Counted from the stretch's first letter, positions 2,957 to 52,246 are shown. The stretch is DNA of 53,752 nucleotides from Candidatus Parcubacteria bacterium (GCA_023132875.1 JAGLXN010000008.1:1-53752), one strand, 5' to 3'. Numbers and translations are program-made. The notes: a model not told the origin generated them from the letters alone.

Positions 2957-3005
2957 ATTGTCATTTTGAACCCGATAAATAATAACAATATAACAATATA
3001 ACAAT

Positions 3006-4562
3006 TTACTTCTCAATCAAACTTCCTAAAACCATGTCTTTCGGTTTTTCAATATTCAAAGCATCAAGCAATGTCGGAGCTACATTTCCCAAAATTCCGT
3101 TGCGCCTTAATTTGCATTTCTCCGGACTGTATCCATTTTTAGCTATGATAAACGGAACTGGATTTTTGCTGTGCATTGTCATAACCTCCTTTGTTTTTAA
3201 ATCAATCATTTCATCAGCATTGCCGTGATCAGCTGTAATAATCGCTGTCCCTCCGCTTTCTAAAATCTTTTCAATTACCTGTTTTAAACATTTGTCTAAA
3301 AATTCTACCGCTGTTATAGTCGCCTTTAAATTGCCGGTATGCCCAACCATATCAGCGTTCGCGTAATTTACGGCTATAAAATCATACACGCTGTACTCTA
3401 TATTTGAAGTTATAACTTTTGTAATATCATTTGCCGACATTTCAGGCTGTTGGTCATAAGAAAAAACATTTGGTGATGGAATTTTTTCTCTGTCTTCCTT
3501 ATCAACAAGATTTTTATGCCCGCCATTTAAAAAATATGTTATGTGGGGATATTTTTCCGATTCAGAAATATAAAGCTGCTTCAAATTTTTCAACACAGAT
3601 GGAATGGTATTTTTAATCTCTTGAGAAGAATAAGCCACTTGCACAGGAAGATCCGGGCCAAAATCAGTCAGCGTGCAAGCAAAAATATCTTTAAGCTTAT
3701 GCGGCCTGTTTTCGTACCCAATCACATCATCAAGAACAAATAATTTTGTGAACTGTCTTGCCCTGTCTCCGCGAACATTGAAAAATATTATCGCATCATT
3801 ATCCTTTATCTTTGCCATGGGTTTGTTTTTTTTGTCCATAATAACCGTTGGAACAATAAATTCATCAGTTAAGCCCTGTTTGTAAGAGCTTTCAATTGCC
3901 TCTTCCGCTGAATTGCTTTTAGCTCCATCTCCCAAAACCATTACATCATACGCTCTTTGCAATCTATCCCAGTGCTTAACCCTGTCCATGCCATAATATC
4001 TGCCGCCTATAGTAGCAATTTTGCCAATTCCTATTTCTTCTATTTTATTATTTAAATCCTTTAAAAAAGAAAAGGCTTTTTTTCTATAAGTATCTCTTCC
4101 GTCCGTGAAAAGATGCAGATAAACCTGTTTTATTCTTTTTTGTTTCGCAAGCTTTAAAAGAGCGTAAAGATGATCAGGATCACTGTGCGGACTGTCAAGT
4201 TCAGATAAAAGTCCGATGAAATGAAGATTCTTTTTTTTCACTAATGCATGGTTTATAGTTCTTAAAATTTTCGGGTTTTTGAAAAATTTTCCCGACTCAA
4301 TATCTTCTCTTATGATTTGCGAGTCCTGTTCTATAATCCTTCCAGCACCTATATTAAAATGCCCCGCCTCGCTTCCGCTTCTTTCATTCTCGCTAAGTCC
4401 CACAGCAAGCCCAGTCGCGTTAAGCATTGTAGAAGGATATTTTCTTACTAAATTATCAAAAAAGGGCTTCTTCGCCAATTCAATGGCATTACCCCTATTT
4501 TTCGGAGCAACTCCCCAGCCATCAAGGATTATTAGAATGTTTGTTGGTTTTTTCATAAACAA
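3006..4562 (-). CDS. gpmI: 2,3-bisphosphoglycerate-independent phosphoglycerate mutase
   Basis: LIILDGWG, SEAGHFNIGAGR, HLFTDGRD, NADMVGHTG and TADHGNAD motifs. Confidence 0.97.
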   Translation of the reverse strand: MFMKKPTNILIILDGWGVAPKNRGNAIELAKKPFFDNLVRKYPSTMLNATGLAVGLSENERSGSEAGHFNIGAGRIIEQDSQIIREDIESGKFFKNPKILRTINHALVKKKNLHFIGLLSELDSPHSDPDHLYALLKLAKQKRIKQVYLHLFTDGRDTYRKKAFSFLKDLNNKIEEIGIGKIATIGGRYYGMDRVKHWDRLQRAYDVMVLGDGAKSNSAEEAIESSYKQGLTDEFIVPTVIMDKKNKPMAKIKDNDAIIFFNVRGDRARQFTKLFVLDDVIGYENRPHKLKDIFACTLTDFGPDLPVQVAYSSQEIKNTIPSVLKNLKQLYISESEKYPHITYFLNGGHKNLVDKEDREKIPSPNVFSYDQQPEMSANDITKVITSNIEYSVYDFIAVNYANADMVGHTGNLKATITAVEFLDKCLKQVIEKILESGGTAIITADHGNADEMIDLKTKEVMTMHSKNPVPFIIAKNGYSPEKCKLRRNGILGNVAPTLLDALNIEKPKDMVLGSLIEK

Positions 4563-4584
4563 TAATTTTTAATTTTGTAATTTT

Positions 4585-4788
4585 CCAGCCAGAGGCTGGT
4601 CCGCCTTGGGCGGGTAATTTTGTAAATAAATCTTAATTTTTAATTTTTAAAACCATCATTCCTGGAACGAGTTTGCCAACCTGTCCGGCAGGCAGGCAGC
4701 TCGTTTCTTTTGTTTTGAGGTTTCAATGATTTTGTTTTATCGTAACCATTGAAAGATTCTGATCCGCCAGCTGGCGGACAGAATGACA
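4585..4788. repeat. Composite of short palindromic elements between eno and gpmI
   Basis: CCAGCCAGAGGCTGGTCCGCCTTGGGCGG (4585-4613), CCTGTCCGGCAGGCAGG (4680-4696) and AGATTCTGATCCGCCAGCTGGCGGACAGAATGACA (4754-4788); each has relatives elsewhere in the window. Confidence 0.85.
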
Positions 4789-4888
4789 AGTTAAAATGAC
4801 AATTCAACAATTTGGCAATAGAACAATACGGTAATTATTACTACAATCAAACATTCTAAATTTCTATAATATTTTTCACAATAATCAC

Positions 4889-6157
4889 TTATCCCAATTC
4901 ATTTTCAATCTCCATCAGCCGATTATATTTCGCCAGTCTTTCTCCTCGCGATAATGATCCCGCTTTCAAAAAATCCGCTCCGACGGCAACAGCTAAATCC
5001 GTAATGAAGTCATCGCAGGTTTCGCCAGATCTATGCGAAACAATAATTTTCCATTTAGCTTTTTGCGCCATTTTAACGCACTCTATTGTTTTAGATAAAG
5101 TTCCGATTTGATTAAGCTTAATAATAATCGCATTAGCGCAATCATTATCAATTGCCTTTTGCAATCTTTTTGTGTTCGTCACGGTTAAATCGTCCGCTAC
5201 GATCATTAAATTACTGTTTTCTGCAATTAATTTCTTCTTCATTTCTTTCCACTCATTCCAATCTTCCTCGTTCAATCCATCTTCAATCGAAAATAATGGA
5301 TACTTTTTAATCCATTCCAAATATAATGCTATTAATCTTTGATAATCCAAAGAAATGTTTTCGGGCTTTAAAATATATTTATTATCATCCAAAGAAAAAA
5401 ATGAATTTGTGGCAGCATCTATAGCAATAAAAACATCTTTTCTTAATTCATAATTTGATTTTTTAACAGCACTGCTTATCAAATCAAAGGTTTGAGCATG
5501 GCTATCCAACTTGGGAGCAAAACCTCCTTCATCGCCAACCCCAGTTGAATACCCATTTGCAGAAAGAATGCTTTTAAGATTATGGAAAATTTCACTTCCA
5601 GCTCTTATTTTTTCCTTAGTTGTTTTTATACCTTTCGGCACAATCATAAATTCCTGAATCGAAAGTCCGCTATCCACGTGCTTGCCGCCATTTAGAATGT
5701 TAAACATAGGGATTGGTAATTGGTAATTGGTAATTGGTAATTGGTAAGTTTTTGCAATGTATTTATATAATGGTTTATTCGTCACCGCGGCTCCGACTCT
5801 GGCACAGGCAAGAGATACCCCCAAAATCGCGTTTGCTCCTAAATTTGATTTATTTTCAGTACCGTCAAGATCAAGCATAATTTTATCAATTTTTTTCTGC
5901 GCAGTAACTGGCTGTCCTTTCAAAGCTTTTGCAATTTCTTTATTAACATTCTCACAAGCTTTCAAAACGCCTTTGCCGCTATATCTTGACTTATCTCCAT
6001 CCCGCAATTCCAAAGCTTCGAATTCCCCCGTTGACGCTCCGGAAGGAACGGCGGCAACAGCTTTAATCTTATTTTCCAAAACAACTTCAACCTCAACAGT
6101 CGGATTCCCGCGAGAATCAAGAATTTCCCGCGCTTTTATTTTTTTGATTTTATTCAT
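4889..6157 (-). CDS. eno: Enolase
   Basis: DSRGNPTVE, VPSGASTG, GDEGGFAP, SHRSGET and RGERLAKYNRL motifs. Confidence 0.98.
   Translation of the reverse strand: MNKIKKIKAREILDSRGNPTVEVEVVLENKIKAVAAVPSGASTGEFEALELRDGDKSRYSGKGVLKACENVNKEIAKALKGQPVTAQKKIDKIMLDLDGTENKSNLGANAILGVSLACARVGAAVTNKPLYKYIAKTYQLPITNYQLPIPMFNILNGGKHVDSGLSIQEFMIVPKGIKTTKEKIRAGSEIFHNLKSILSANGYSTGVGDEGGFAPKLDSHAQTFDLISSAVKKSNYELRKDVFIAIDAATNSFFSLDDNKYILKPENISLDYQRLIALYLEWIKKYPLFSIEDGLNEEDWNEWKEMKKKLIAENSNLMIVADDLTVTNTKRLQKAIDNDCANAIIIKLNQIGTLSKTIECVKMAQKAKWKIIVSHRSGETCDDFITDLAVAVGADFLKAGSLSRGERLAKYNRLMEIENELG
5712..5746. repeat. (ATTGGTA)x5 tandem array inside eno
   Basis: Five perfect 7-bp units, translated as YQLPITNYQLPI. 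Confidence 0.95.
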
Positions 6158-6891: not shown

Positions 6892-7938
6892 CTATTTAAA
6901 ATTATAATTTAACCACCTTATATACAGCCCGCTTCCGATCATAATTGGCAAAGGCAAAACTGTTAAAGTAAACATTCCCCAAAGTCCACTGATTAAAACA
7001 ACTAATACGGCTCCAGAGAGCATTAAGAAGTAACTCCACAAATTTCTGATTCTTTTAACAGCAAATAAGCAGATACCGATCAAAAATATTGGATAAAGAA
7101 AAAATAAGTTAGTAAGAAGAAAAATCGGCAAATTTTCCATATTAAACCCATATCTGAATATTGTATAAAGCTGGTTTAGGGAAGAACTCCAATAAGTATT
7201 ATCTTCATTAAATATTACCCAAGCTTTTTCAACATACGGAACTGTCATAGACTCATAAAATTTTATGCCCATCTCATCACTTGTGTCATTTAAAATACTG
7301 TTTCGAACTTCAGAAGAACTGGCGTTTTCTTCATATATTCTCAGCCAAGCATGCGTTCCGCCGGCAAACCCTCCTGTTATATATACATTATACCCTAGAT
7401 TCTTCAAAATTGCATACCCTACCAAAGCCCGTCCGCGGCAATCAGATGACATAAGATTCATAACTCTATCCGTTGTTGGATAATAAAAACTAGAAATATG
7501 ATAAGGTATTTGATTATGAACATAACTTTCAATTTCATCCGCGACATAAGATAAATTACTTGAATTATTAGAATAATTCTTAAAATCCTCCGTCATTCTA
7601 ATAATTTCTGGATGATTTCTGTCAATAATCAACTCTGGATTGTTCATCTTATACTTTTCCATTGCATTTCCAACAATTATCGGAGAAGATATAATCCCAA
7701 TAATAAAAAGAATTAAAACCATTTTCTTCAATGATCCAAAAATATCTTTGAAGCTAAAAAAACCGATAAACAGCGGCACAGCGGTAATAATCAAAACCAT
7801 ACCGAATAAAACAGGTGATAAATATAAAAATAATATTACAAGAACAAGCAAAAAAACTGACATTAAGTAAATATTTCTTTCTAACTTTTTGATAAATTTA
7901 AAAATCATTTTATAATACAAGTTAGATTTTACAAACAC
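6892..7938 (-). CDS. Membrane protein with a transglutaminase-like extracytoplasmic domain
   Basis: N- and C-terminal TM helices; SDCRGRA..YAILKNLG and THAWL resemble the transglutaminase-like Cys/His motifs. The real start may be downstream of 7938. Confidence 0.6.
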   Translation of the reverse strand: MFVKSNLYYKMIFKFIKKLERNIYLMSVFLLVLVILFLYLSPVLFGMVLIITAVPLFIGFFSFKDIFGSLKKMVLILFIIGIISSPIIVGNAMEKYKMNNPELIIDRNHPEIIRMTEDFKNYSNNSSNLSYVADEIESYVHNQIPYHISSFYYPTTDRVMNLMSSDCRGRALVGYAILKNLGYNVYITGGFAGGTHAWLRIYEENASSSEVRNSILNDTSDEMGIKFYESMTVPYVEKAWVIFNEDNTYWSSSLNQLYTIFRYGFNMENLPIFLLTNLFFLYPIFLIGICLFAVKRIRNLWSYFLMLSGAVLVVLISGLWGMFTLTVLPLPIMIGSGLYIRWLNYNFK

Positions 7939-7945
7939 ATTTATT

Positions 7946-8093
7946 TCCCCCTGATAAGGGGGATTAAGGGGGATTGGATACTGGCAGAGTCATAACTACA
8001 AAAGAAAATTGAGAAGATATTTTAACTTTTCAATTTTAAATTATAATTCTGTGATTCTCCAAACCCCTCCTAGCCTCCCCTTATCAGGGGAGA
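7946..8093. repeat. MITE/REP-like element with CCCCTGATAAGGGG inverted ends
   Basis: Left end TCCCCCTGATAAGGGGGATTAAGGGGGATT; right end is the reverse complement of TTCTCCCCTGATAAGGGGAGGCTAGGAGGGGTT. Related to the murD insertion. Confidence 0.75.
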
Positions 8094-8119: not shown

Positions 8120-9295
8120 TTATTCCAGCGCTTCCAATCCTGGCAATTTTTCTCCTGCCAAAAATTCAAGCATCGCGCCGCCGCCCGTACAAATATAATC
8201 CATTTTATTTAAATAACCAAGCTGGTCAAGCGCCATAATTGTATCTCCTCCTCCTATTATAGTATATCCGTCTGATTCTACAACAGCTTTTGCGATTTCC
8301 CTTGTGCCAAAAGAAAAATTTTTGTCTTCAAACATTCCCATCGGCCCGTTCCAGATTATAGTTTTAGAATCAGATATTATTTTTGAATACAAATTTGCGC
8401 TTTCCGTTCCAATGTCAAGTATTTTATTATCTCCGACTTTTCCTATTGCCTGCAAAGAAATTTTTTTGCTTTTAGAATTGTAAACAACCGCATCAACTGG
8501 AACATATAATTTATTGCTTCCAAGATTTATTTCTCTTACCTCCTTAATATCTATCCCATCCATTAAAGATTTTCCGGTATCAATCCCCTTTGCTTTTAAT
8601 ATCACATTTGCCACAACTCCTCCGACCAAAATATGATCAACTTTATTCATTAAATATTCGATTACGGGCACTTTTGTTTTTACCTTTGCTCCACCGATAA
8701 TAACGGTAACTGGCCCTTTTGAATTGTTTATCGCGTCAGATAATATTTTTACTTCTTTTCCCAAAAGTAATCCAGCGTAAGACGGCAAGAATTTTGTAAT
8801 AGCTGAAATAGAAGCGTGAGCGCGGTGCGAAACAGAAAAAGCATCGTTTACATAAATATCTGCGAGTTTAGATAGTTCTTTCGCAAATTTTTCGCCATTA
8901 TTTTTCTCTTCTTTATAAAATCTTAAATTTTCCAACAAAATAATTTCTCCTGCCCGCATTTTTTCAACAGCATCTTTTGCCTTATCCCCAACACAATCAT
9001 CAATAAATTTTATTTTACAATCCAACAGTTCTTCAAGCCGTTCTGCTACAGGTCTTAGACTATATTCTTGATTCTTAATTCTTAATTCTTGATTCCCTTC
9101 CGGTCTTCCCAAATGACTTATCAAAATAATCTTCGCTTCTTTTTCCAATAAATACTCTATCGTCGGCAACGCCGCTTTAATTCTCCAATCTTCTTTATTA
9201 TCCACAATTCCATCATCCCCAACTGGCACATTAAAATCAACCCTAATGAGAATTTTTTTATTTTTTAAATTTTTAATTTTTTTAATTAATTTCAT
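8120..9295 (-). CDS. pgk: Phosphoglycerate kinase
   Basis: IRVDFNVP, SHLGRP, LLENLRF, NDAFSVSHRAHAS, WNGPMG, GGGDT and TGGGAMLEFL motifs. Confidence 0.98.
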   Translation of the reverse strand: MKLIKKIKNLKNKKILIRVDFNVPVGDDGIVDNKEDWRIKAALPTIEYLLEKEAKIILISHLGRPEGNQELRIKNQEYSLRPVAERLEELLDCKIKFIDDCVGDKAKDAVEKMRAGEIILLENLRFYKEEKNNGEKFAKELSKLADIYVNDAFSVSHRAHASISAITKFLPSYAGLLLGKEVKILSDAINNSKGPVTVIIGGAKVKTKVPVIEYLMNKVDHILVGGVVANVILKAKGIDTGKSLMDGIDIKEVREINLGSNKLYVPVDAVVYNSKSKKISLQAIGKVGDNKILDIGTESANLYSKIISDSKTIIWNGPMGMFEDKNFSFGTREIAKAVVESDGYTIIGGGDTIMALDQLGYLNKMDYICTGGGAMLEFLAGEKLPGLEALE

Positions 9296-13156: not shown

Positions 13157-14926
13157 TTACTTCCTTTCTTTATATTCCGTATGCAAAACGCTATACTCTA
13201 ACTTCCCCTGTTTCTTCAGCCATTCCAAAACTTCTAAAACTCCTTTATTTCGATGCGCTTCTCTTATTTTTTTATTCTTGTCAATTTTATACAGCGCTGC
13301 TATTCTTTTCTTTCTTATTTCATCTGTTGTTGGAATTGGCTGGCCGCCGCCGCCAATGCACCCTCCGGGACACGCCATTACTTCAATATAATCGTAGCTA
13401 TTTAATTTTTCCAGCACTTGCTCAATATTGCCGATACCGTTGACAACAGCAACGCGCAATTTAGCACCAGATACAGAGACGGCTGTTTCTTTCACGTTAT
13501 CAAGTCCGCGGACAGATTTAAAGTCCAGATTTAATTTGCATATTTTATTTTCCTTTTTCTTATCGCCAGCGCAAGCAAAAAACCGCGCGCTTCGCAAAGC
13601 TGATTCCATTACTCCCCCGCTTCCGCCATAAATAGCTGCCGCGCCGCTATATTCTCCCAGTGGATGATCCGCTTGTTCTCCTTTTATTTTAGCGAAATTA
13701 ACACACCCTCTTTTTATCATCCACGCAAATTCTCTAGTGGTTAAAACATAATCAACGGGGAACATTCCTTTTATTTTCATTTCTTTTCTTGAGGACTCAA
13801 ATTTTTTGGCTGTGCAAGGCATAATAGAAACAACTACTATATTTTTTGGATCTACATTCATTTTCTCCGCCCAATATGTTTTGATAATTCCGCCCAAATG
13901 AATATGCGGTGATCTAGCAGTTGTTAAATTCGGAATTAATTCCGGATGGTAAAATTCAACATATTTCACCCAAGCGGGACAGCAAGAAGTTATCATCGGA
14001 AGTTTTGACTTTGCGCTTTTTTTGTCGGAATTATTCAATCTTCCTAATAATTCTTTCGCCTCAACCACTGTCGTCACATCAGCGCCGAAGTTAACATCAA
14101 AAATATGATCAAAACCGAGTTTTCTTAATCCCGCAACAACTTGGCCAGTCGCGATTTTACCGTAGGGCAGGCCGAATTCTTCTCCAATGCTGACCCTAAT
14201 TGAGGGAGCAAACTGCGCGATGACAATTTTACTTTTGTCATATAAAACCTTTTCAACTTCTTCCCAATGACTTTGCTCTTGCGCTGCACCAACAGGACAA
14301 TGAACAGCACACTGCCCGCAATAAATACAGTCAACCTTGCCATCCCCTCTGACAAGGGGGGATAGAGAAGAATTATTTTTTTTATTTTCCACAATTTCTT
14401 GATCAACTCCTTTTCCTTTTAATTTCAAATAATTTATATTCTGTAAAACAGAACAAGCATCAAGACAATTACGGCAGTCAATGCATTGAGATCCGTCAAT
14501 TTCAACAGCATTGGCAAATTTATATGTTTTTCTTTCACTTTTTCTATCTTTAAACCGCTTGATTTTAATATCATATTTTTCGGCCAATTTTAATAATCCG
14601 CAATTGACATTCCAAATGCAATCGGGACATTTTTCAATATGTTCGGCAAATATTAATTCAATATTCAAATTGCGGACTTTTTTCACCCGTTCTGTATTTG
14701 TATAAATTTCCATCCCGCCTTGAACTTTAGTTGAACAAGATGTCATCAACTTTTTCATTCCCTTAATTTCCACTACGCAAATCCGGCAATTCGCTTTCGG
14801 CGAAAAATCAGGATGATTACAAAGTCCCGGGATTTCTATTCCATTTCCTTTCGCCGCTTCCATAATTGTTTTATCTGAAGAGCAAGTTATTGCCCTATCG
14901 TCAATTTTAATCTTTACTTTCTTCAC
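13157..14926 (-). CDS. hydA: [FeFe]-hydrogenase group A catalytic subunit
   Basis: H-cluster motifs TSCCPAW, MPCTAKKFE and EVMACPGGCIGGGGQP; N-terminal 2Fe-2S domain, HxxxCxxCxxxxxC cluster and two CxxCxxCxxxC ferredoxin motifs. Confidence 0.96.
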   Translation of the reverse strand: MKKVKIKIDDRAITCSSDKTIMEAAKGNGIEIPGLCNHPDFSPKANCRICVVEIKGMKKLMTSCSTKVQGGMEIYTNTERVKKVRNLNIELIFAEHIEKCPDCIWNVNCGLLKLAEKYDIKIKRFKDRKSERKTYKFANAVEIDGSQCIDCRNCLDACSVLQNINYLKLKGKGVDQEIVENKKNNSSLSPLVRGDGKVDCIYCGQCAVHCPVGAAQEQSHWEEVEKVLYDKSKIVIAQFAPSIRVSIGEEFGLPYGKIATGQVVAGLRKLGFDHIFDVNFGADVTTVVEAKELLGRLNNSDKKSAKSKLPMITSCCPAWVKYVEFYHPELIPNLTTARSPHIHLGGIIKTYWAEKMNVDPKNIVVVSIMPCTAKKFESSRKEMKIKGMFPVDYVLTTREFAWMIKRGCVNFAKIKGEQADHPLGEYSGAAAIYGGSGGVMESALRSARFFACAGDKKKENKICKLNLDFKSVRGLDNVKETAVSVSGAKLRVAVVNGIGNIEQVLEKLNSYDYIEVMACPGGCIGGGGQPIPTTDEIRKKRIAALYKIDKNKKIREAHRNKGVLEVLEWLKKQGKLEYSVLHTEYKERK

Positions 14927-18952: not shown

Positions 18953-19046
18953 TGTTTATATTGCTAAATTGCTAAATTGCTTTATCCGTCATATTATTGT
19001 TTATCGCACAACAATTTGACAATTTAGCAATTTGACAATTTGACAA

Positions 19047-19238
19047 TTATTTTTCTATTTTTATCGCCCCAACCGGACAACTATTTATTGCTATTTCACA
19101 ATCGCATTTTTTACTCTCGTCTTTATTTACAACATTAACTTTTCCATCATCTTGCAGTTCAAACGCGTCAGGACACAAATTAACACAAGCTCCGCACCCA
19201 ATACAGAGTTCTTGATCAACTTTAATTTTTTTTGCCAT
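19047..19238 (-). CDS. fdx: Monocluster ferredoxin
   Basis: CIGCGACVNLCP ... CPVGAI in 63 aa. Confidence 0.92.
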   Translation of the reverse strand: MAKKIKVDQELCIGCGACVNLCPDAFELQDDGKVNVVNKDESKKCDCEIAINSCPVGAIKIEK

Positions 19239-24041: not shown

Positions 24042-24100
24042 AACATTAGTATTTAGTATTTAGTATTTAGTATTCCAGCTATATACTGCATACTAAATAC

Positions 24101-30663: not shown

Positions 30664-30839
30664 AAAAAAAGCTTTCCGCCAGCTAATAGCCCCTTTCGGT
30701 GCTATCACTATACCCTTTCGAGTATAGACTCGTCCTACAAAGTACTGGCTAGAAAGCCATTTCTATATAGGACGAGATTTAAACCATACTCCAAGCAAAA
30801 AGCCCAAAGGTTAGGTTACTAAATTGTTACTCATTTTCT
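30664..30839 (-). ncRNA. Candidate structured leader RNA upstream of sduA
   Basis: Closing stem GCUUUUUGC/GCGGAAAGC, 9-bp CUCGUCCUA/UAGGACGAG stem, two GAAA-capped hairpins and a U7 tail; G-U wobbles favour the minus strand. Confidence 0.6.
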
Positions 30840-31049: not shown

Positions 31050-31084
31050 ACAAAAGGCTCCAGTCAGGAGACTGGAGCCAACAA
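31050..31084 (-). terminator. Intrinsic terminator after secF
   Basis: GGCUCCAGUC-UCCU-GACUGGAGCC followed by UUUUGUUU. Confidence 0.75.
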
Positions 31085-38012: not shown

Positions 38013-39263
38013 TCATAATTTATGATTCAATTTATAAAACCACGAAATCAATCCTAATAAAAACACAATTACCCCCGCAATCAAAAAAGTGTTTTGAAAT
38101 CCGATATAAAAAATCATAATGCCACCAAAAAGAGCGCCAATTGCAGGACCAAGGGTTGTTATAACTGTATCTATTGTTGACGCTTCTTCCTGATAATTTT
38201 TAAGCTTCTTGGAAAGCAAAGCGCTTTTTCCACTTTCCATTGTCAACGCGCTAAGTGAGCTAATTACCATTACAAAAAACATTCCTATTAAATTTACTAC
38301 ACTGGCAAAAGTTCCAAGCATAATGGTTATTAACCCCTCTAATGTCATTCCTCCACTAATAGTTTTTGCATCTCTAAATTTCTCAACTATTTTTATAACT
38401 ATTATTGAAAGCGGTAAATAAGCTATAGCAGCCAAAGAAATAAATCTAATAATTTCCTCTTGAGAAAAATGCAACTCTTTTAAAAATAAAACAAAAAAGG
38501 CGCGGTAAATCCCGACTAAAATTAAAGCTGCAAAGAGAGAAGTTAAAATTACAATGAAAGTTTTGTCGGGTTTTATGATATTAAAAATCTTGGTATAATT
38601 TTTTCTTATACTTATTGTGGATGATACTTCCGTAGGCGACACGTCAACGTGTCGCCTACGGGATGATGTCAAATTTCCATTCAACCTCGCATAAGCATAG
38701 ATTGTATTCGCGAACTGAATTATAACACTCAAAACAAAAACACCCGTAAAACCAAATTTCCAAATAACAATTCCTCCAATTACTGGAGCAAACGCCGCGG
38801 CATAATGAGGCATTGAATAAAACCATCCAAAACTTCGGCTATGGCTGTCTGTTTCAGACTTCATTAAAATTAATTTCAAAGATACCAGCCATGCCGCCGC
38901 GGAAAAACCAAGGATTATTTGAGCGATATAAAAAACTGTTAAATTATGGCTTACGATCATCAGTAACGCAAAAATCCCATACCCAAAAATTCCAAACGCC
39001 GCGACTTTTGACGGATTAAATTTGTGGATATAATAATTTATTATTACGGAAGAAATAGCAATAACAGAATAAGTAAGAAGATAAATGCTTCCCACATTCA
39101 TTATTGAAAATCCGATAGAAATTAAAAACAACGGATAATAGAGCGAGAAAAGCTTATATCCGAACATCAATAGAAAATGCACCAGTGAAACATCAAAGGT
39201 GGTTTTTTCCATTTTCGGAAACCAGGAATATAGATTTTGGTGGTTTTCAAGAAGACCAAACAT
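38013..39263 (-). CDS. MFS transporter
   Basis: About 12 hydrophobic helices in two halves; FAPVIGG and GPAIGALFGG motifs. Confidence 0.85.
   Translation of the reverse strand: MFGLLENHQNLYSWFPKMEKTTFDVSLVHFLLMFGYKLFSLYYPLFLISIGFSIMNVGSIYLLTYSVIAISSVIINYYIHKFNPSKVAAFGIFGYGIFALLMIVSHNLTVFYIAQIILGFSAAAWLVSLKLILMKSETDSHSRSFGWFYSMPHYAAAFAPVIGGIVIWKFGFTGVFVLSVIIQFANTIYAYARLNGNLTSSRRRHVDVSPTEVSSTISIRKNYTKIFNIIKPDKTFIVILTSLFAALILVGIYRAFFVLFLKELHFSQEEIIRFISLAAIAYLPLSIIVIKIVEKFRDAKTISGGMTLEGLITIMLGTFASVVNLIGMFFVMVISSLSALTMESGKSALLSKKLKNYQEEASTIDTVITTLGPAIGALFGGIMIFYIGFQNTFLIAGVIVFLLGLISWFYKLNHKL
38630..38661. repeat. GTAG-type palindrome in-frame in the MFS gene
   Basis: CCGTAGGCGACACGT-CA-ACGTGTCGCCTACGG, encoding SRRRHVDVSPT. 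Confidence 0.9.
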
Positions 39264-40534: not shown

Positions 40535-41509
40535 TTAGAACCCCACATACTCAATCTCTTCCCTCAACTGAATGCCAAATCTACTTCTAATTTTTTGTTT
40601 AATTAAACTTATCAAAATAACAACATCTTCCGCTTTGGCATTGCCAGTATTAACAATAAAATTACAATGCTTTTCTGAAATCATTGCTCCACCGATTTTT
40701 TTGCCTTTAAATCCTAATTCCTCTATCAGCCACCCAGTAGGAATGGTGTTGTTTTTAGCAATTTTATTTAGCTCTGGATATTCTTTTATTAATTTTGCCA
40801 AATGACTATCGTCAACAACAGGATTTTTAAACACGCTTCCAGCGTTTGGATATTCAAGCGGCTGTTTCTCTGTTCTTAATTTTAAATACTCTTTAATTAC
40901 TTTCCTGCTTTCTGCTTCATCTCCTTTGCTTAATTTTAAAACAGCGCTTAAAATAATATATTTTTTTTCTTCTTTAAAAATGCTACTACGATATTTAAAT
41001 TGACATTCTTTGTTGTTTAATTTTCCAGTTTCCAATTTCTCCGCCCAAGGCGGACCAGCCTCGGGCTGGCAATTTCCAATATCCAATATCTCCACTTCTT
41101 TCACAACATCCTTCATACATTTTCCAAAAGCCCCAACATTATCTACAATCGCCCCGCCTACTGTCCCCGGAATTCCCGCCAAACACTCTAATCCAGTTAA
41201 ATTATTTTTAACAGATTCGCCAATTAATTTTGCTAAAGACAATCCACTACCAACAATAATTCTATTATTCTTAATTCTTAATTCCTGATTCTTAATTCTT
41301 ATTACCAATCCATCAAATCCTTCATCTGAAATTAATAAATTACTCCCGCCACCCAGAACAAAAACATTTAATTTATTTTTCTCCGCGAACTCCAATACTT
41401 CTTTTATTTCATCGTTATTTTCCGCCACGCAAAAATACTTCGCCACTCCGCCGATTTTAAACGAAGTGTATTTTGATAATAAAATGTTTTTTTGAATTTT
41501 AATTGACAT
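40535..41509 (-). CDS. murB: UDP-N-acetylmuramate dehydrogenase
   Basis: TSFKIGG.A, LGGGSNLL, IPGTVGGA, YRSSIF, AGSVFKNP and HCNFIVN motifs; start at MSIKI (41509) preferred. Confidence 0.95.
   Translation of the reverse strand: MSIKIQKNILLSKYTSFKIGGVAKYFCVAENNDEIKEVLEFAEKNKLNVFVLGGGSNLLISDEGFDGLVIRIKNQELRIKNNRIIVGSGLSLAKLIGESVKNNLTGLECLAGIPGTVGGAIVDNVGAFGKCMKDVVKEVEILDIGNCQPEAGPPWAEKLETGKLNNKECQFKYRSSIFKEEKKYIILSAVLKLSKGDEAESRKVIKEYLKLRTEKQPLEYPNAGSVFKNPVVDDSHLAKLIKEYPELNKIAKNNTIPTGWLIEELGFKGKKIGGAMISEKHCNFIVNTGNAKAEDVVILISLIKQKIRSRFGIQLREEIEYVGF
41041..41069. repeat. 29-bp double-hairpin element in-frame in murB
   Basis: Reverse complement CCAGCCCGAGGCTGGTCCGCCTTGGGCGG matches 4585-4613 at 28 of 29 positions; encodes QPEAGPPWAE. 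Confidence 0.92.
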
Positions 41510-41699
41510 ATTTTTGATTTGTAATAAAATATTTATAAGAGGTGAAACAAATAATGTACGGAGATATTGGAACACGACGAGAAGGAATACTTGAAAGGGC
41601 AGAAAGACTTCGTAGAAACTTTCCTAATTGGGCATTTAATTGGAAAAAAGAAACAACAACTAAGAAAGGTACCTTTTAAATAAACCTTTCTTTTTTTAT

Positions 41700-43693: not shown

Positions 43694-45151
43694 CTATCCT
43701 ACCAATACATCTGCTACTTTGTATATATCCCCCGCTCCCATAATTAATAATATATCATCTGGTTTTATTTTCTCATCAATTAATTTTCTTGTTTCTTCCA
43801 AATTTTCAGCGTAGAAAATTTCTCCAGAAGGCGACACGTCGACGTGTCGCCTTCGTTTTATATCTTCCACTAAATCTAAAGAACTAATATTTTGATCGTC
43901 GCTTTCTTCACGACCAGCTACATCAAATATTTCCGCTAAAATAACAACATCCGCCCCGTCAAAACTGTTTAAAAAATCTTTATATAATTTTTTAGTCCGA
44001 TTGTGCTGATGCGGTTGGAAGACAGTGAAGATTCTTTTATTGGGATAAAATTGCCTTGCCGCTTCTATCGTCGCTTTAACCGCCGTCGGATGGTGCGCGT
44101 AATCAGAAATCACTAAGGCATTTTTATATTTCCCTTTTATTTCAAACCGCCGCCAAATCCCTGAGAAATTTAACAATGATCTTTTTATAATTTCAACTGA
44201 AATATTTAGAGTAAATCCTAAAGCAATTACTCCCAAAACATTATAAACATTAAACAGCCCCGGCACTTTCAAAACAAACTCGCCCAGATCTTTATTATTA
44301 TAAACCACTTTAAATTTAGTTTCTCCATTTTTAAATTCAATGTCACAACCCCGCACATTATTATTTTTATTTAAACCAAAGGATAGTGTTTTGAATTTGT
44401 AATTTTGAATTTGTAATTTATTTGTTATTTGTAATTTTTTCGCCCAAGGCGGACCAGCTTCGGACTGGGAATTTGTAATTTCCTCATCATCGCCATTATA
44501 TATTAGCGTTCCATCTTCCGGCAAATGCGAGATAAATTCCCTGAACGCGTTTTTAAAATCTTTAATGTCTTTATAATAATCCGTATGATCAAGTTCTATA
44601 TTATTTAAAATAATTATTTTAGGATATAAATTTAAAAATGACCTTTCGTACTCGCACGCCTCAGCAACAAAATATTTGCTTTTTCCAACTCTTAAATTGC
44701 CATCATATTTTGGCATGATACTCCCCACAATAATAGACGGATCAATTCCGGCATCATCTAAAAGTAATCCCGCCATCGCAGAAACTGACGATTTTCCATG
44801 CGTCCCGCAAATTGCAATTCCGTATTTATCATTAAAAACAAGCCCAAGAGATTCAGGATAAGTGATTGTTTTTATTTTTAATTCTTTTGCTCTTCTTAAT
44901 TCAGGATTATCTTTTGGAACAGCAGTTGTATAAATTACCAAACCTGTATCTTGAGAAATATTTTCTTCCGACTGTCCTATATAAATTTTAACTCCCAATT
45001 TTTCTAATTTTTCCGTCATCAAAGAAGGGCTCATATCCGAGCCACTTACTTCTCTGCCCTTTTCTTTCATAAGTCTGGCAATCGCGCTTAGTCCTATTCC
45101 TCCGATACCTATAAAATGAATTTTTTTTATTTTATTTAAGTCTATATTCAT
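43694..45151 (-). CDS. murC: UDP-N-acetylmuramate--L-alanine ligase
   Basis: IHFIGIGGIGLSAIA, GTHGKSS, VAEACEY, ELDHTDYY, RRFE, DYAHHPT and FQPHQ motifs. Confidence 0.95.
   Translation of the reverse strand: MNIDLNKIKKIHFIGIGGIGLSAIARLMKEKGREVSGSDMSPSLMTEKLEKLGVKIYIGQSEENISQDTGLVIYTTAVPKDNPELRRAKELKIKTITYPESLGLVFNDKYGIAICGTHGKSSVSAMAGLLLDDAGIDPSIIVGSIMPKYDGNLRVGKSKYFVAEACEYERSFLNLYPKIIILNNIELDHTDYYKDIKDFKNAFREFISHLPEDGTLIYNGDDEEITNSQSEAGPPWAKKLQITNKLQIQNYKFKTLSFGLNKNNNVRGCDIEFKNGETKFKVVYNNKDLGEFVLKVPGLFNVYNVLGVIALGFTLNISVEIIKRSLLNFSGIWRRFEIKGKYKNALVISDYAHHPTAVKATIEAARQFYPNKRIFTVFQPHQHNRTKKLYKDFLNSFDGADVVILAEIFDVAGREESDDQNISSLDLVEDIKRRRHVDVSPSGEIFYAENLEETRKLIDEKIKPDDILLIMGAGDIYKVADVLVG
43827..43854. 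repeat. 28-bp perfect palindrome in-frame in murC
   Basis: GAAGGCGACACGTCGACGTGTCGCCTTC, encoding RRRHVDVSPS. Confidence 0.92.
44440..44468. repeat. 29-bp double-hairpin element in-frame in murC
   Basis: Reverse complement CCAGTCCGAAGCTGGTCCGCCTTGGGCGA, encoding QSEAGPPWA. Confidence 0.9.
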
Positions 45152-46294: not shown

Positions 46295-46436
46295 ATATTT
46301 ATATTAAATTGTTATATTGTTATATTACCATTTTTTAAGCAAAAAAAGAAGGGGGTGTATTAAGTATTTAGTATTTAGTATCAAGTAAAATTGGTTAAAT
46401 GTTTCTGCTAAATACTAGATACTGTATACTGTATAT

Positions 46437-47531: not shown

Positions 47532-47632
47532 AGATTATATTGTTATATTGTTGTACTGTTATATTGTCCTATTGTTAAATTGTTAGATATTTTTATTTTA
47601 ACAATAGAGCAATAGAGCAATAGAGCAATTAA

Positions 47633-49039: not shown

Positions 49040-49071
49040 TTGGTATTGAGTATTGAGTATTGAGCTTGATA

Positions 49072-50163
49072 CTAAATATTAGATACTGAATACTGAATAC
49101 TAGATACTATTTCATCCACCTCACCAAAATTTTCTGCTTTATAAATTTTGCTCTCGTCGATTTTACCAACCTCAACTCTTGCTTTTCCAGAAAGAATACA
49201 AACAGCTCTATTAAATTTATTTTTTCTACTAGCTTTTATAATTCCAGCAAAACTCGCACAACCCTCTGAAGATGTATTTATGTTATTTTTTTCAAGTAAT
49301 TTTGTCGCTTCTTGAATTTCTCTATCAGTAACATAAATTCCTTTTCCTTCGCTTAATTTTATAAGTTCAATGATCTCATTTTTTCTTTTTGTATTTTTTG
49401 CGCCTAGCTTACCAGTGTTTGATTCTTGTTTTTGAATTTTTTCAAATTCAGATGCAATTGAAAATATCTTTCCACTCTGAACAGCAAATAGCTTTGGCAA
49501 CTTTTTAATTCCACCGCTTTCTAAAAGATATTTATATGCTCTGCCAATCCCAATAAATGAACTTCCGCTTGTTACGAAAGTAAAAATCGCGTCCATTTCT
49601 CCTAAATTCTCAAATATTTCAAATGCGATTGACTTAAATCCTTCTATTGATGAATTATTAATAGAGGGTCTTAGATTTTCTATTTTATATTTTGCTGTTA
49701 AATAATTCGCCAGCCGAATTGCTCGTTTTGATTTTATTATTATCGGATTATATTTTTGCATTTTAACGGTCTTTGCTTTTTCAGTTTCTGGAGATATAAA
49801 AATATACAATTTTATTTTCGCCTTCTGGCAATATGCAGCCGCCGCAATCCCTGCGTTCCCGGAAGTTGAGATCACTAGTTTATTTTTGTTATTCTGTTTC
49901 GCCAGTGAAACCTGATAAGCAAGACTCCTGTCTTTGAGTGATCCTGTAATATTTTCGTCTTCCCGCTTGAAATATAAATGATTTATATTTGGTAAATCAA
50001 CTTTAGCAACATTGTTTTGCAGGCGACACGTCGACGTGTCGCCTTCATTTGGGGAATCATTTAAACTTAACCTATTTTCCGACTTTATAAATTCATCATA
50101 AAGTTTAGCATATCGCCAAATGCCTTTTTCTTTTTTGTTGATTTTATTTTGAAAATTTGACAT
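49072..50163 (-). CDS. Fold-type II PLP enzyme (threonine-synthase-like)
   Basis: YFKREDENITGSLKDR (PLP Lys), STSGNAG, VTSGSSF and CILSG motifs; substrate unknown. Confidence 0.85.
   Translation of the reverse strand: MSNFQNKINKKEKGIWRYAKLYDEFIKSENRLSLNDSPNEGDTSTCRLQNNVAKVDLPNINHLYFKREDENITGSLKDRSLAYQVSLAKQNNKNKLVISTSGNAGIAAAAYCQKAKIKLYIFISPETEKAKTVKMQKYNPIIIKSKRAIRLANYLTAKYKIENLRPSINNSSIEGFKSIAFEIFENLGEMDAIFTFVTSGSSFIGIGRAYKYLLESGGIKKLPKLFAVQSGKIFSIASEFEKIQKQESNTGKLGAKNTKRKNEIIELIKLSEGKGIYVTDREIQEATKLLEKNNINTSSEGCASFAGIIKASRKNKFNRAVCILSGKARVEVGKIDESKIYKAENFGEVDEIVSSIQYSVSNI
50021..50044. repeat. 24-bp perfect palindrome in-frame in the PLP enzyme gene
   Basis: AGGCGACACGTCGACGTGTCGCCT, read as GDTSTCRL. 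Confidence 0.92.
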
Positions 50164-50582: not shown

Positions 50583-50680
50583 GGATTACATTGCTCTATT
50601 GTTATATTGTTCTATTGTTATGCGTAGCACGGCAATTTAACAATGGAACAATGCGACAGTATGATGACGCAATAGTTTTA

Positions 50681-52246
50681 CTATTTCATCAATTTAACCC
50701 ATTCTCTTAAATCCTTATTAGTATTCTCTACATATTTTGAATAAAAATGCGCTGCGCCGGGAGAAATTAAAACAACACTACCTTTTGAAAGACCGGTTTT
50801 TTTATAATATTTTTTCAAAATTTTAATCGCCTCTTGGAAATTCTTTACTTTTATAAAATCTATTTTGTTCTTATTAATCAGCTTTCCAATTTCATCTGAA
50901 GCGTCACCGGGAAATAAAACCAGAAATTTTACTTTATCATTTATTTTCTCTACCAATTTTTGATAATCCATTCTTTTATTATCTCCGCCTGCCAATAAGA
51001 TTATATCTTTATCAAAAGATTCAAGTCCGGCGATTGCCGCTTCTGGAGTAGTTGCTTGCGTATCGTCATAATATTTTATTCCATCTATATTGTAAAGCAG
51101 TTTTAATCTATGTTTTGTGCCGGTATATTCTGATACGCCTTTTTTTATTATCCTCGGCTCTATGCCATAAAGATAAGCAACAGAAACAGCCGCTAAAACA
51201 TTTTCCAAATTATGTTTCCCCGGAATTTTTATATTGTCAATATTACAAATAGTAACAAACTCAGAAGCTAAGCGTCCTATAAAACGCTTAGCTTCTTTTA
51301 TTTTCATTACTATTTTCCCATCTTTTACAAAACATCCTTCTTTTAATTTTTCTTTTCTACTAAATAAAAATATTTTTGATTTTTGATTTTTGATTTTTGA
51401 TTCATTGGCTATTTTTCTTGTTTCTTGATTATCATAATTCAAAACCGTCCAATCCCCTTTCTTCTGATACCTGATTAAATTCTTTTTCGCCTCAATATAA
51501 TTTTCGAAACTTCCATGATCATCAATATGATTTGAAGTAATATTTGTTATTACTCCAATGCGCGGACTTATTCCTGAATTTAACAATAGTTGCGTGCTGC
51601 TTGTTTCCAAAATTAAAACATCATCTTTAGTCATCTCACTAAGCTTATCTAAAACCTGAACATTCTGACGATCATTGCCGGCAAAATAAACTTTAATTCC
51701 CCAACCCTCCTTATCAGGGGGAGAATTTAGCCCCCCTGATAAGGAGGGTTGGGGAGTTTCTGTCCAAGCCTCAAAAATATTATTAATCAATCTTACCGTT
51801 GTTGTCTTACCGTTCGTCCCTGTTACAGAAATTATTTTGCATGGCGCTAGTTCAAAATATAAATTGGTTATAGTTTTAAAAGGAACTCCGCTATCTTTAA
51901 GCTTTTCTAAAATCGGCATATTTTGCGGATATTTAAACCAAACTTGCGAAACAAAAACTATATCCGCCTCTTCAACGCCTTCCAGATAATGATCTTTAAA
52001 ATTTATTCTGATCGGCAAATTCAAAAGATGATTTAAGTCCTCTTCTTTTTTTTTGGATTTTAAACTTAAATGGGTATTATAGTAGACTTTTTTAAAATCC
52101 GCCTTAGGAGAAAAATCATGTCCTGTTATTGATGAAATTCCATTTGCAACCAAAAACTCCGCAACAGCGCTTCCCTCCGCCCCGCCAATTCCGACAATGT
52201 GGATGTTTTTGTTTTTGTATTGATTGAGTTTTTCTGATATTGACAT
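50681..52246 (-). CDS. murD: UDP-N-acetylmuramoyl-L-alanine--D-glutamate ligase
   Basis: VTGTNGKTTT, LETSSTQL, NITSNHIDDHG, PGKHNLEN, HRL and YYDDTQAT motifs. Confidence 0.88.
   Translation of the reverse strand: MSISEKLNQYKNKNIHIVGIGGAEGSAVAEFLVANGISSITGHDFSPKADFKKVYYNTHLSLKSKKKEEDLNHLLNLPIRINFKDHYLEGVEEADIVFVSQVWFKYPQNMPILEKLKDSGVPFKTITNLYFELAPCKIISVTGTNGKTTTVRLINNIFEAWTETPQPSLSGGLNSPPDKEGWGIKVYFAGNDRQNVQVLDKLSEMTKDDVLILETSSTQLLLNSGISPRIGVITNITSNHIDDHGSFENYIEAKKNLIRYQKKGDWTVLNYDNQETRKIANESKIKNQKSKIFLFSRKEKLKEGCFVKDGKIVMKIKEAKRFIGRLASEFVTICNIDNIKIPGKHNLENVLAAVSVAYLYGIEPRIIKKGVSEYTGTKHRLKLLYNIDGIKYYDDTQATTPEAAIAGLESFDKDIILLAGGDNKRMDYQKLVEKINDKVKFLVLFPGDASDEIGKLINKNKIDFIKVKNFQEAIKILKKYYKKTGLSKGSVVLISPGAAHFYSKYVENTNKDLREWVKLMK
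51699..51754. repeat. 56-bp palindrome in-frame in murD
   Basis: 23-bp perfect arms CCCCAACCCTCCTTATCAGGGGG/CCCCCTGATAAGGAGGGTTGGGG, within the peptide TPQPSLSGGLNSPPDKEGWG. Confidence 0.92.

Follow-up and report, generated by a model that had tools for sequence, protein, structure and literature searches.

A modular 30-nt double-hairpin element of Patescibacteria, its occurrence in short-period tandem arrays and its relation to tRNA-associated GIY-YIG cassettes

Introduction

The 53,752-nt stretch of a Candidatus Parcubacteria bacterium analyzed here (GCA_023132875.1, JAGLXN010000008.1:1-53752; hereafter the window, meaning this whole stretch) carries three copies of a short GC-rich double hairpin, one between genes and two within the essential cell-wall genes murB and murC, and each copy lies inside a tandem array with a unit of 7/8 bp. 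The question raised by this locus is how the hairpin and the array came to be nested. The original prediction offered two answers, namely that the arrays act as landing pads for the hairpin in a two-tier system, or that both are made by the same mechanism, and it knew of no description of such nesting. Searching the literature by sequence, peptide and topic we found none either, with a coverage of journals that was incomplete, and an earlier report is possible.

The element is a miniature palindromic repeat element, and what is new about it is its linkage to GIY-YIG and tRNA genes and its preference for arrays. On the sequence comparisons described below, it would probably be a solo modular mobile element, moved in trans, likely by the GIY-YIG family, and preferring arrays. 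Beyond what had been predicted, two of the copies lie in frame in genes, and the element belongs to a cross-phylum family tied to GIY-YIG/tRNA cassettes.

Results

The element is a 30-nt unit of two palindromic modules

The pattern CCAGCC-N3-GGCTGG-T-CCGCC-N3-GGCGG matched the window three times, at 4585-4613 (+), 41041-41069 (-) and 44440-44468 (-, 3 mismatches), with 0 matches in 100 shuffles and 0 expected. The positions and flanks of the three copies were as originally described; the length of 29 bp was not, as the true unit has 30 nt and joins one perfect 15-nt palindrome, A (CCAGCC-N3-GGCTGG), to another, B (TCCGCC-N3-GGCGGA), because the base 3' of GGCGG is nearly always an A (106 of the 107 copies with unique flanks, among the matches listed in other genomes). 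The 30-nt coordinates are 4585-4614, 41040-41069 and 44439-44468. Copy 1, on the plus strand, has the order A-B, CCAGCC-AGA-GGCTGG followed by TCCGCC-TTG-GGCGG-G, and its final base is a G, not an A. Copies 2 and 3 are on the minus strand and read A-B on the strand of their host genes: copy 2 splits a Trp codon of murB (40535-41575, -), and copy 3, with its mismatches, lies within murC (43694-45151, -). Modules A and B are each their own reverse complement except for the loop, therefore a 'minus orientation' corresponds to the order B-A, and the modules occur in either order. Folded as DNA, copy 1 forms two adjacent hairpins (-11.5 kcal/mol, z -4.2) and so does copy 2 (-12.4 kcal/mol, z -3.0); copy 3 is decayed (z -1.2), its first hairpin lacking two stem pairs and its second lacking one.

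Several variants confirm that the element is modular. A B-B version was found in murB of the homologue P0013, and solo B modules in the window at 4763-4778 and in the loci L020, L083 and L091. The solo B-like module of the window, TCCGCC-AGCT-GGCGGA, has a 4-nt loop and is nested in a longer inverted repeat (ATTCTGA..TCAGAAT). Other versions of the modules read TCAGCC-N3-GGCTGA and CCCGCC-N3-GGCGGG. The length of the double module is nearly fixed, since 148 of 149 in all the sequence collected are exactly 30 nt, in open reading frames (ORFs) or outside them.

Each copy is bordered by repeats on both sides. Copy 1 is flanked as TTTTGTAA-TTTT(element)GTAA-TTTTGTAA; Tandem Repeats Finder (TRF) called a TAATTTTG array on its left (4563..4584) and a TAATTTT(G)/TTAATTT array continuing on its right (4615..4650). 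Copy 2 is flanked as TTCCAGT-TTCCAAT-TTCT(element)CAAT-TTCCAAT-ATCCAAT, with heptamer units at 41023..41039 (GAAATTG GAAACTG GAAAATT on the gene strand) and at 41070..41090 (GATATTG GATATTG GAAATTG). Copy 3 is flanked as TTGTAAT-TTTT(element)GAAT-TTGTAAT, with a TTTGTAA/TTTTGAATTTGTAA array of period 7/14 at 44389..44438 (TRF), which is present without the element in the homologue P0123, and one more array unit (GAATTTGTAATTTC) at 44469..44482. Each copy had been thought to split one unit of its array; under the 30-nt definition it sits between units, as in GAAATTG^GAAATTG of murB (the caret marks the insertion point here and below).

The two copies within genes are oriented with their gene and use the same frame. 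Copy 2 encodes MurB residues 147-157 (CQPEAGPPWAE), that is a 10-residue insert QPEAGPPWAE, and copy 3 encodes MurC residues 228-238 (SQSEAGPPWAK), with the insert QSEAGPPWAK. Close homologues of the two ORFs have the MurB domains PF01565 and PF02873 and the MurC domains PF01225, PF08245 and PF02875, respectively. The AlphaFold model of MurB had a mean predicted local distance difference test score (pLDDT) of 58, with the insert region below 50, and was not used.

Arrays and element vary separately among relatives

Forty MurB homologues with 70-84% identity align perfectly except in one loop, and the DNA of eight of them provided a series of alleles at this loop. The empty site is found in P0004 (GAGATATTG^GAAACTGG), the array by itself in P0039 ((GAAATTG)x4-5) and similarly in P0029, the array with A-B in the window (GATATTG GATATTG GAAATTG (30 nt) GAAATTG GAAACTG) and similarly in P0007, the array with B-B in P0013, and (GATATTG)x4 with other hairpins, of the CCCCC-TTATCA-GGGGG type, in P0026 and P0055. 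Removal of the 30 nt from the window murB restores the Trp codon (...DIGNWKLETGKL...) and leaves a sequence collinear with the array-only alleles. The murC gene gave a comparable picture: P0123 (GAAATTACAAATTC^AAAATTACAAAT.../GAAATTACAAATTC^AAAATTACAAATAACAAATAAATTACAAAC...) has the window's irregular array without the element, and the window has exactly 30 nt extra at the caret. P0129 carries an intact element at the identical point followed by a short repeat only, and most murC relatives have neither array nor element.

These alignments show that the element is a clean 30-nt insertion or excision with no target-site duplication, and that arrays and element are separable, each staying in frame alone, in steps of 21 nt for the arrays and 30 nt for the element. 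The same point has been either struck twice or vacated precisely. An origin of the arrays from target duplication plus excision footprints was ruled out, given the exact 30-nt difference and the fact that a 7-nt duplication would break the frame.

A contig from a second cold-seep sample, with a single difference over 216 flanking positions (~99.5% identity), lacks exactly 41031-41081. This 51-nt segment comprises the element and three heptamers; its deletion, which has a 6-nt microhomology at the joint, restores the empty allele VEIL^ETGKL. Therefore, array repeats can also remove the element in frame.

Element copies are enriched in short-period arrays

TRF returned 107 rows for the window, among which periods 7, 8 and 9 dominate with 17, 14 and 10 arrays. 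Since most spacers between co-directional genes consist of short tandem arrays, the base rate was measured: with the three elements deleted, arrays of period 5-16 cover 2.55% of the coding and 12.1% of the non-coding window sequence. All three junctions of the window fall within arrays, as predicted, which has a probability of about 0.121 x 0.0255 x 0.0255 = 8e-5. In other genomes, where all counts here and below are among the copies listed, 26 of 119 junctions lie in TRF arrays (period 5-16, element deleted), compared with a 2.0% coverage of the same loci, and period 7 is dominant among the arrays at those junctions. Counting independent copies, 23/111 (~21%) are in arrays; the rate is 19/81 (23.5%) for the coding class against a background of 1.6% (p = 6e-17) and 4/30 (13%) for the remaining copies against 4.3% (p = 0.04). 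The flank periodicity that had been proposed as a check was found as well: once the 30 nt were removed, all copies in other genomes together showed an excess of flank identity at lags 7 and 14 (z 5.6 and 7.3). Nesting is not obligatory, because about four in five copies in other genomes are without an array.

We then compared these rates with three controls. Positions with the simple flank motif are in arrays in 2.5% of cases, and positions that equal real sites in their score on a weight matrix derived from copies outside arrays in 3-4%; a target motif as the sole cause of the enrichment was thus ruled out, in view of the 21% at real sites. Other perfect GC-rich hairpins in the same AT-rich loci (stem of at least 7, not A/B) are in arrays in 0/37 coding and 1/42 non-coding cases, compared with 13/44 and 7/31 for A/B elements (Fisher p = 1.5e-4 and 0.009). 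The three controls therefore indicate that the array association is real and specific to the A/B family. The landing-pad half of the original prediction is thereby favored, and its same-mechanism half is disfavored, given the exact 30-nt differences, the separable alleles and the many arrays and copies that occur one without the other.

These data bear on the view that arrays and hairpin are unrelated and merely survive together where extra sequence is harmless, in surface loops and spacers. The murB loop and the C-terminal site of murC are indeed hypervariable hot spots, where different relatives carry arrays and hairpins of at least three families, and the enrichment is far stronger in coding sequence than in spacers, which could be explained if only 5-10% of coding positions tolerate insertions. 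However, shared tolerance would not predict that other GC-rich hairpins in the same loci are hardly ever in arrays (in what is an imperfect control), that three further coding hairpins of the window, of the GGCGACACG family, lie outside arrays, or that the enrichment holds in non-coding DNA too. We consider this explanation unlikely.

Improbable as well, and to a greater degree, is that a single machinery produces both, nuclease cuts and error-prone repair making 7/8-bp duplications and sometimes capturing a hairpin. The dominance of periods 7, 8 and 9, the excess of flank identity at periods 7 and 14, flanking units that are identical at 7/7 positions in five cases, the several hairpin families beside (GATATTG)n arrays at one murB site and the long duplications containing the element at tRNA genes (described below) would all suit such a process. 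Against it, the insertion is of exactly 30 nt relative to array-only alleles, in which a 7-nt duplication would break the frame, most spacers hold arrays without a hairpin, and about 80% of the copies in other genomes have no array; moreover, identical flanking units are trivial within a perfect array, and no array polarity was seen around the element (13 vs 12). The comparisons rather show that the 7/8-bp arrays are a separate and far commoner feature of the genome, local sequence expansions that occur with or without the element, and that probably arise independently of it.

The same element occurs across phyla and in many reading frames

A scan with the pattern CCAG-N7-CTGGTCCGCC-N3-GGCG, taking one genome per species, gave at least 118 loci. 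A few matches in GC-rich genomes are due to chance; at least 113 true copies remain, 107 of them with unique flanks. The inner stem bases left open in the pattern are almost always CC/GG, and the loops vary (AGA, CGA, CAA and others in A; TTG, TTT, TCT and others in B). The Patescibacteria hosts include Parcubacteria, Moranbacteria, Saccharibacteria, Berkelbacteria, Daviesbacteria, Levybacteria, Doudnabacteria, Uhrbacteria and others, and further hosts are Omnitrophota, Planctomycetota, Lentisphaerales, a verrucomicrobial metagenome-assembled genome (MAG), Bdellovibrionales and a Leptospira MAG. The flanks show a pyrimidine at -2 in 102/107 copies, rarely an A at -1, and R-A-A at +2 to +4, with a consensus for insertion of ...Y(C/G/T)^(A/G)AA...

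Long ORFs, by which alone coding status outside the window was judged, contain 59 of the 113 copies, several of them within the Gly/Phe-rich region of DnaJ-like proteins. The length of the element equals 10 stop-free codons, and the frame is kept in MurB, MurC and many other proteins. The frames are used unevenly: 37 coding copies give (F)SAxGGPAxGW, 10 (12 with both window copies) give QPxAGPPxAE, and the two Arg-rich frames together account for 4/59. Such a skew would be expected under selection on a translated peptide and suggests that the coding copies are translated.

We give very little credence to the idea that the hairpin is a functional motif of the host (such as a terminator, regulatory hairpin or conserved peptide) or an assembly artefact. 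GC-rich hairpins are often RNA signals, and copy 1 closely precedes a gene start, which would suit the former; on the other hand, the hairpins are followed by no T-run on either strand, the copies are spread over all six frames, tRNA fragments and spacers, and no Rfam family reached its gathering threshold at the element. As for an artefact, it is contradicted by the many independent assemblies, the variable loops and the presence/absence alleles.

The modules border tRNA-associated GIY-YIG cassettes

In other genomes, tRNA sequence borders about 15% of the copies, which are embedded in T-loops (55/56 or 56/57), D-loops or anticodon loops. No copy interrupts the sole tRNA gene; every one examined is in a partial duplicate beside an intact tRNA, and some of these sites are long-period tandem duplications that include the element (133 nt x2 in L020, 162 nt x2 in L083).

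Such loop positions are where archaeal tRNA introns occur, and hairpins called 'byp' in coding genes of mitochondria are bypassed. The element could accordingly be thought to act at the RNA level, as a mini-intron or a translational bypass signal that keeps host genes and tRNAs intact. A mini-intron in tRNA was ruled out, because every tRNA-embedded copy examined is in such a partial duplicate, and ARAGORN found no tRNA across the deletion junctions. In proteins, the element is 30 nt throughout and stop-free in the frame used, the Arg-rich frames are depleted in coding copies, as expected if they are translated, and copy 3 has lost stem pairs, yet murC remains open. Double modules in coding sequence have no out-of-frame length variant, and with 148/149 at 30 nt a test of RNA removal based on length is powerless; among RNA sequencing runs, none was found to contain the locus. 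Altogether, an action on RNA is highly improbable.

GIY-YIG ORFs were found next to the element. Among eight in loci ascertained by the element, five lie within 42 bp of it (L016, L024, L026, L053 and L085); these ORFs have about 85 residues and match PF01541 with E values of 1e-13 to 1e-17. In a reverse test, 80 metagenome loci were fetched by GIY-YIG protein similarity alone, with three closer sequences as query. A same-strand tRNA gene starts within 200 nt after the ORF in 52/80 loci, and a module (YCMGCC-N3/4-GGCKGR) lies within 150 nt upstream of the ORF in 55/73. The module density per kb is 8.06 upstream, 2.13 just downstream, 0 in the ORF and 0.08 far away. Upstream of the ORF, 32/47 loci have an exact copy of at least 11 nt from the 5' part of the downstream tRNA, and in 20 of these 32 the hairpin begins within 3 nt of the end of this copy. 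The order of the cassette is tRNA leader with the tRNA 5' part, hairpin module(s), a few more tRNA nucleotides, GIY-YIG ORF and intact tRNA, and the modules are combined as B, B-A, A'-B, B-B or A-A. The hairpin modules of the window are therefore the conserved border of a tRNA-associated GIY-YIG cassette family, and the window copies are its solo derivatives.

In L016 (6485-6850), a GIY-YIG ORF lies between two element copies of opposite module order (A-B and B-A), which share the direct-repeat flanks GGAAGGGTGGCC..GAGTGG, a 5' fragment of tRNA-Ser, and are located just upstream of the intact tRNA-Ser. In L024 (~6950-7080) and L053 (~4830-4900), a tRNA 5' half lies 3' of the GIY-YIG ORF and is followed by a putative group I intron-like sequence in the anticodon region; ARAGORN found no tRNA in these two stretches.

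Other copies, repeats and features of the window and its source

The window has a GC content of 0.33, nearly all its long ORFs are on the minus strand, and it carries the dcw gene cluster of a Patescibacteria genome. An iPGM-type phosphoglycerate mutase gene (3006-4562, -), identified from Pfam, starts about 25-30 nt from copy 1, which occupies the spacer upstream of it. The window comes from a cold-seep metagenome scaffold of 831,018 bp, of which about 72 kb were read, the window plus an adjacent 18 kb. The latter holds a fourth, intergenic copy (L209:19457-19486), so that callable arrays surround 3/4 of the copies known in the source genome. In the source sample, k-mers of the element occur at about 35x the genome depth, in line with the roughly one copy per 18 kb seen.

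Arrays of 7/8 bp often lie directly upstream of start codons in the spacers of the window, for example at 2982-3005, 18960-18981, 19011-19048, 24046-24074, 46304-46326, 47535-47629, 49043-49109 and 50586-50621, and the unit TTATATTG recurs in three different spacers. Heptamer arrays are also present inside coding sequence, at 5712-5747, 9064-9095, 51372-51402 and, in murB, at 41257-41301. The murB array encodes RIKNQELRIKNN; relatives all carry an array there with different units (RIMNYELRIKNN, KIQNSKFKIQNS, KIQDTKYEIQTNN), P0038 has 21 nt extra, and the units look to evolve in concert. The k-mers of the TTTGTAA array (window 44381-44443) are at about 10x the genome depth in runs X1-X3, in one run a TTTGTAA-type array carries another double hairpin (TCAGCC-GGA-GGCTGA TCAGCC-TTT-GGCTAA), and short-read contigs break at TTTGTAA repeats.

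A second family of hairpins, reading (A)GGCGACACG-TCRA-CGTGTCGCC(T), occurs at 38630-38661, 43823-43855 and 50021-50044. All three copies are outside arrays, inside ORFs and read through, for instance as RRRHVDVSPSG close to the MurC C-terminus; in relatives, this murC site is a further hypervariable hot spot, with arrays of the LEIGNWKL type and other hairpins. A third family, CCCCC-TGATAA/TTATCA-GGGGG (and CCCCT-CTGACA-AGGGG), is found at 7946-7963, 8075-8092 and 14344-14359, and also in the murB hot spot of P0026 and P0055 beside (GATATTG)x4. Two perfect hairpins in spacers are alike, GGCTCCAGTC-AGGA-GACTGGAGCC at 31056-31079 and GTTGGCTCCAGTC-TCCT-GACTGGAGCCAAC at L209:12312-12341, and may be terminators or another repeat family. 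Rfam detected a full-length LOOT RNA (RF03000) at 30685-30817 (-), with 68.7 bits against a gathering threshold of 46.4.

Discussion

We propose that an enzyme acting in trans mobilizes the modules, most likely one of the accompanying GIY-YIG nuclease family or else another partner, and that their integration favors short-period tandem arrays. These arrays would reiterate weak target motifs (e.g., ATTG^GAAA), may form slipped or single-stranded structures and would offer dispensable sequence; their repeats would then allow the element to be lost in frame together with whole units. The weakest link of this proposal is the identity of the enzyme. More specifically, the 15-nt GC-rich palindromes might be the DNA substrate of the ~85-residue stand-alone GIY-YIG nucleases, which would cut extruded stem-loops (arms of tRNA genes, slipped repeats), the palindromes being pasted as 15- or 30-nt units with arrays as landing pads; this is a tentative suggestion, which we hold to be possible rather than probable.

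Several points weigh against an array-preferring element mobilized in trans. No GIY-YIG gene, tRNA or other candidate mobilizing gene was found in the window and the adjacent 18 kb of the 831-kb genome. The fourth copy is flanked by a weak repeat (TAAATTT TAAATTC^AAAATTC) with no TRF call, and the large fraction of copies outside arrays in other genomes points the same way. The control hairpins may not all be insertions, which makes the tolerance-matched control imperfect, and the scan pattern had a fixed length, so that the invariance of most stem positions is partly by construction. The presence/absence alleles could come from recombination between strains, and the argument for translation draws on the frame bias of the open ORFs.

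Among known systems, Rickettsia palindromic elements resemble the element in that they insert in frame into genes which are read through, as indicated here by open frames. They are 100-150 bp long, restricted to Rickettsia, unrelated in sequence and not built of modular 15-mers, and they are not known to be linked to tandem arrays, tRNA genes or GIY-YIG genes, whereas the element has 30 nt and a Patescibacteria host. Fungal mitochondrial GC clusters and double-hairpin elements are similar as adjacent GC-rich hairpins dispersed in an AT-rich genome, coding sequence included. Those of Allomyces and of yeast mitochondria have one or two hairpins, occur in spacers and coding sequence and are held to be mobile, with unknown machinery. 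They are organellar and of other sizes, and the element is set apart by its bacterial host; we know of no description in these families of a strict 15+15 nt architecture, a cross-phylum spread, a nesting in arrays or a nuclease/tRNA cassette.

Miniature inverted-repeat transposable elements have terminal inverted repeats and a target duplication and are longer than 30 nt. In the present case a target duplication is absent, with an exact 30-nt difference from the array-only murB and murC and a flank identity only slightly above that of permuted pairs, and terminal inverted repeats are absent too, as each module is its own palindrome and the ends CCAGCC.. and ..GGCGGA are not inverted copies. 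The IS200/IS605-derived palindrome-associated transposable elements have hairpin ends and insert without duplication, 3' of a fixed target of 4-5 nt and with TnpA (Y1) as partner; they are several-fold longer and need guide sequences specific to TnpA. The element shows no duplication, its flank preference is loose (Y at -2, not A at -1, RAA after) and no fixed tetranucleotide was seen. The introns of tRNA genes, archaeal-type or group I, interrupt the sole functional gene copy and are removed from the RNA; they also differ, since the embedded copies examined were all in partial duplicates beside an intact tRNA.

Free-standing GIY-YIG homing genes, such as those of the Seg proteins in the tRNA region of phage T4, are alike in being small ORFs beside tRNA genes that seemingly spread horizontally. 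To our knowledge, no border of hairpin modules, broken target duplicate or dispersed solo derivatives are known for them.

Repetitive extragenic palindromic (REP) sequences, with the bacterial interspersed mosaic elements and REP doublets (REPINs) that they form, are non-autonomous GC-rich palindromes of 20-40 bp in high copy, whose movement in trans has been attributed to a REP-associated tyrosine transposase (RAYT) with a single gene copy; they are extragenic, tagged by GTAG or CGTC, paired as inverted REPINs and species-specific (PMC3733652, PMC3337134). The element differs in several respects: 59/113 copies in other genomes are in long ORFs, and so are two of the three window copies, in murB and murC; the modules start with CCAG or TCCG and the flank logo has no GTAG or CGTC, two unlike palindromes stand in tandem, and one sequence is shared across phyla. 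It has been predicted that GIY-YIG genes passed horizontally from Patescibacteria into other bacteria (PMC12455944), which would fit the cross-phylum spread of the modules.

If mobilization in trans is confirmed, the element, as a 15-nt module that is employed in pairs, would rank with the smallest mobile DNA units known. It would have a candidate enzyme, the range of uncultivated bacteria that serve as its hosts would be unusually wide, and tRNA-gene-targeting GIY-YIG cassettes would be linked to dispersed solo derivatives. Should the palindromes in addition prove to be the substrate of the GIY-YIG nucleases, this would be a new minimal mobile system that crosses phyla and rewrites loops of essential proteins in frame. 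Short-read assemblies break at modules and arrays, which also inflate the apparent divergence of proteins, and their recognition improves the annotation of genomes of this kind. For the Patescibacteria themselves, the element would account for some of the puzzling differences in length among conserved proteins, as at the murB and murC hot spots, and would represent a natural in-frame insertional diversification of essential genes.

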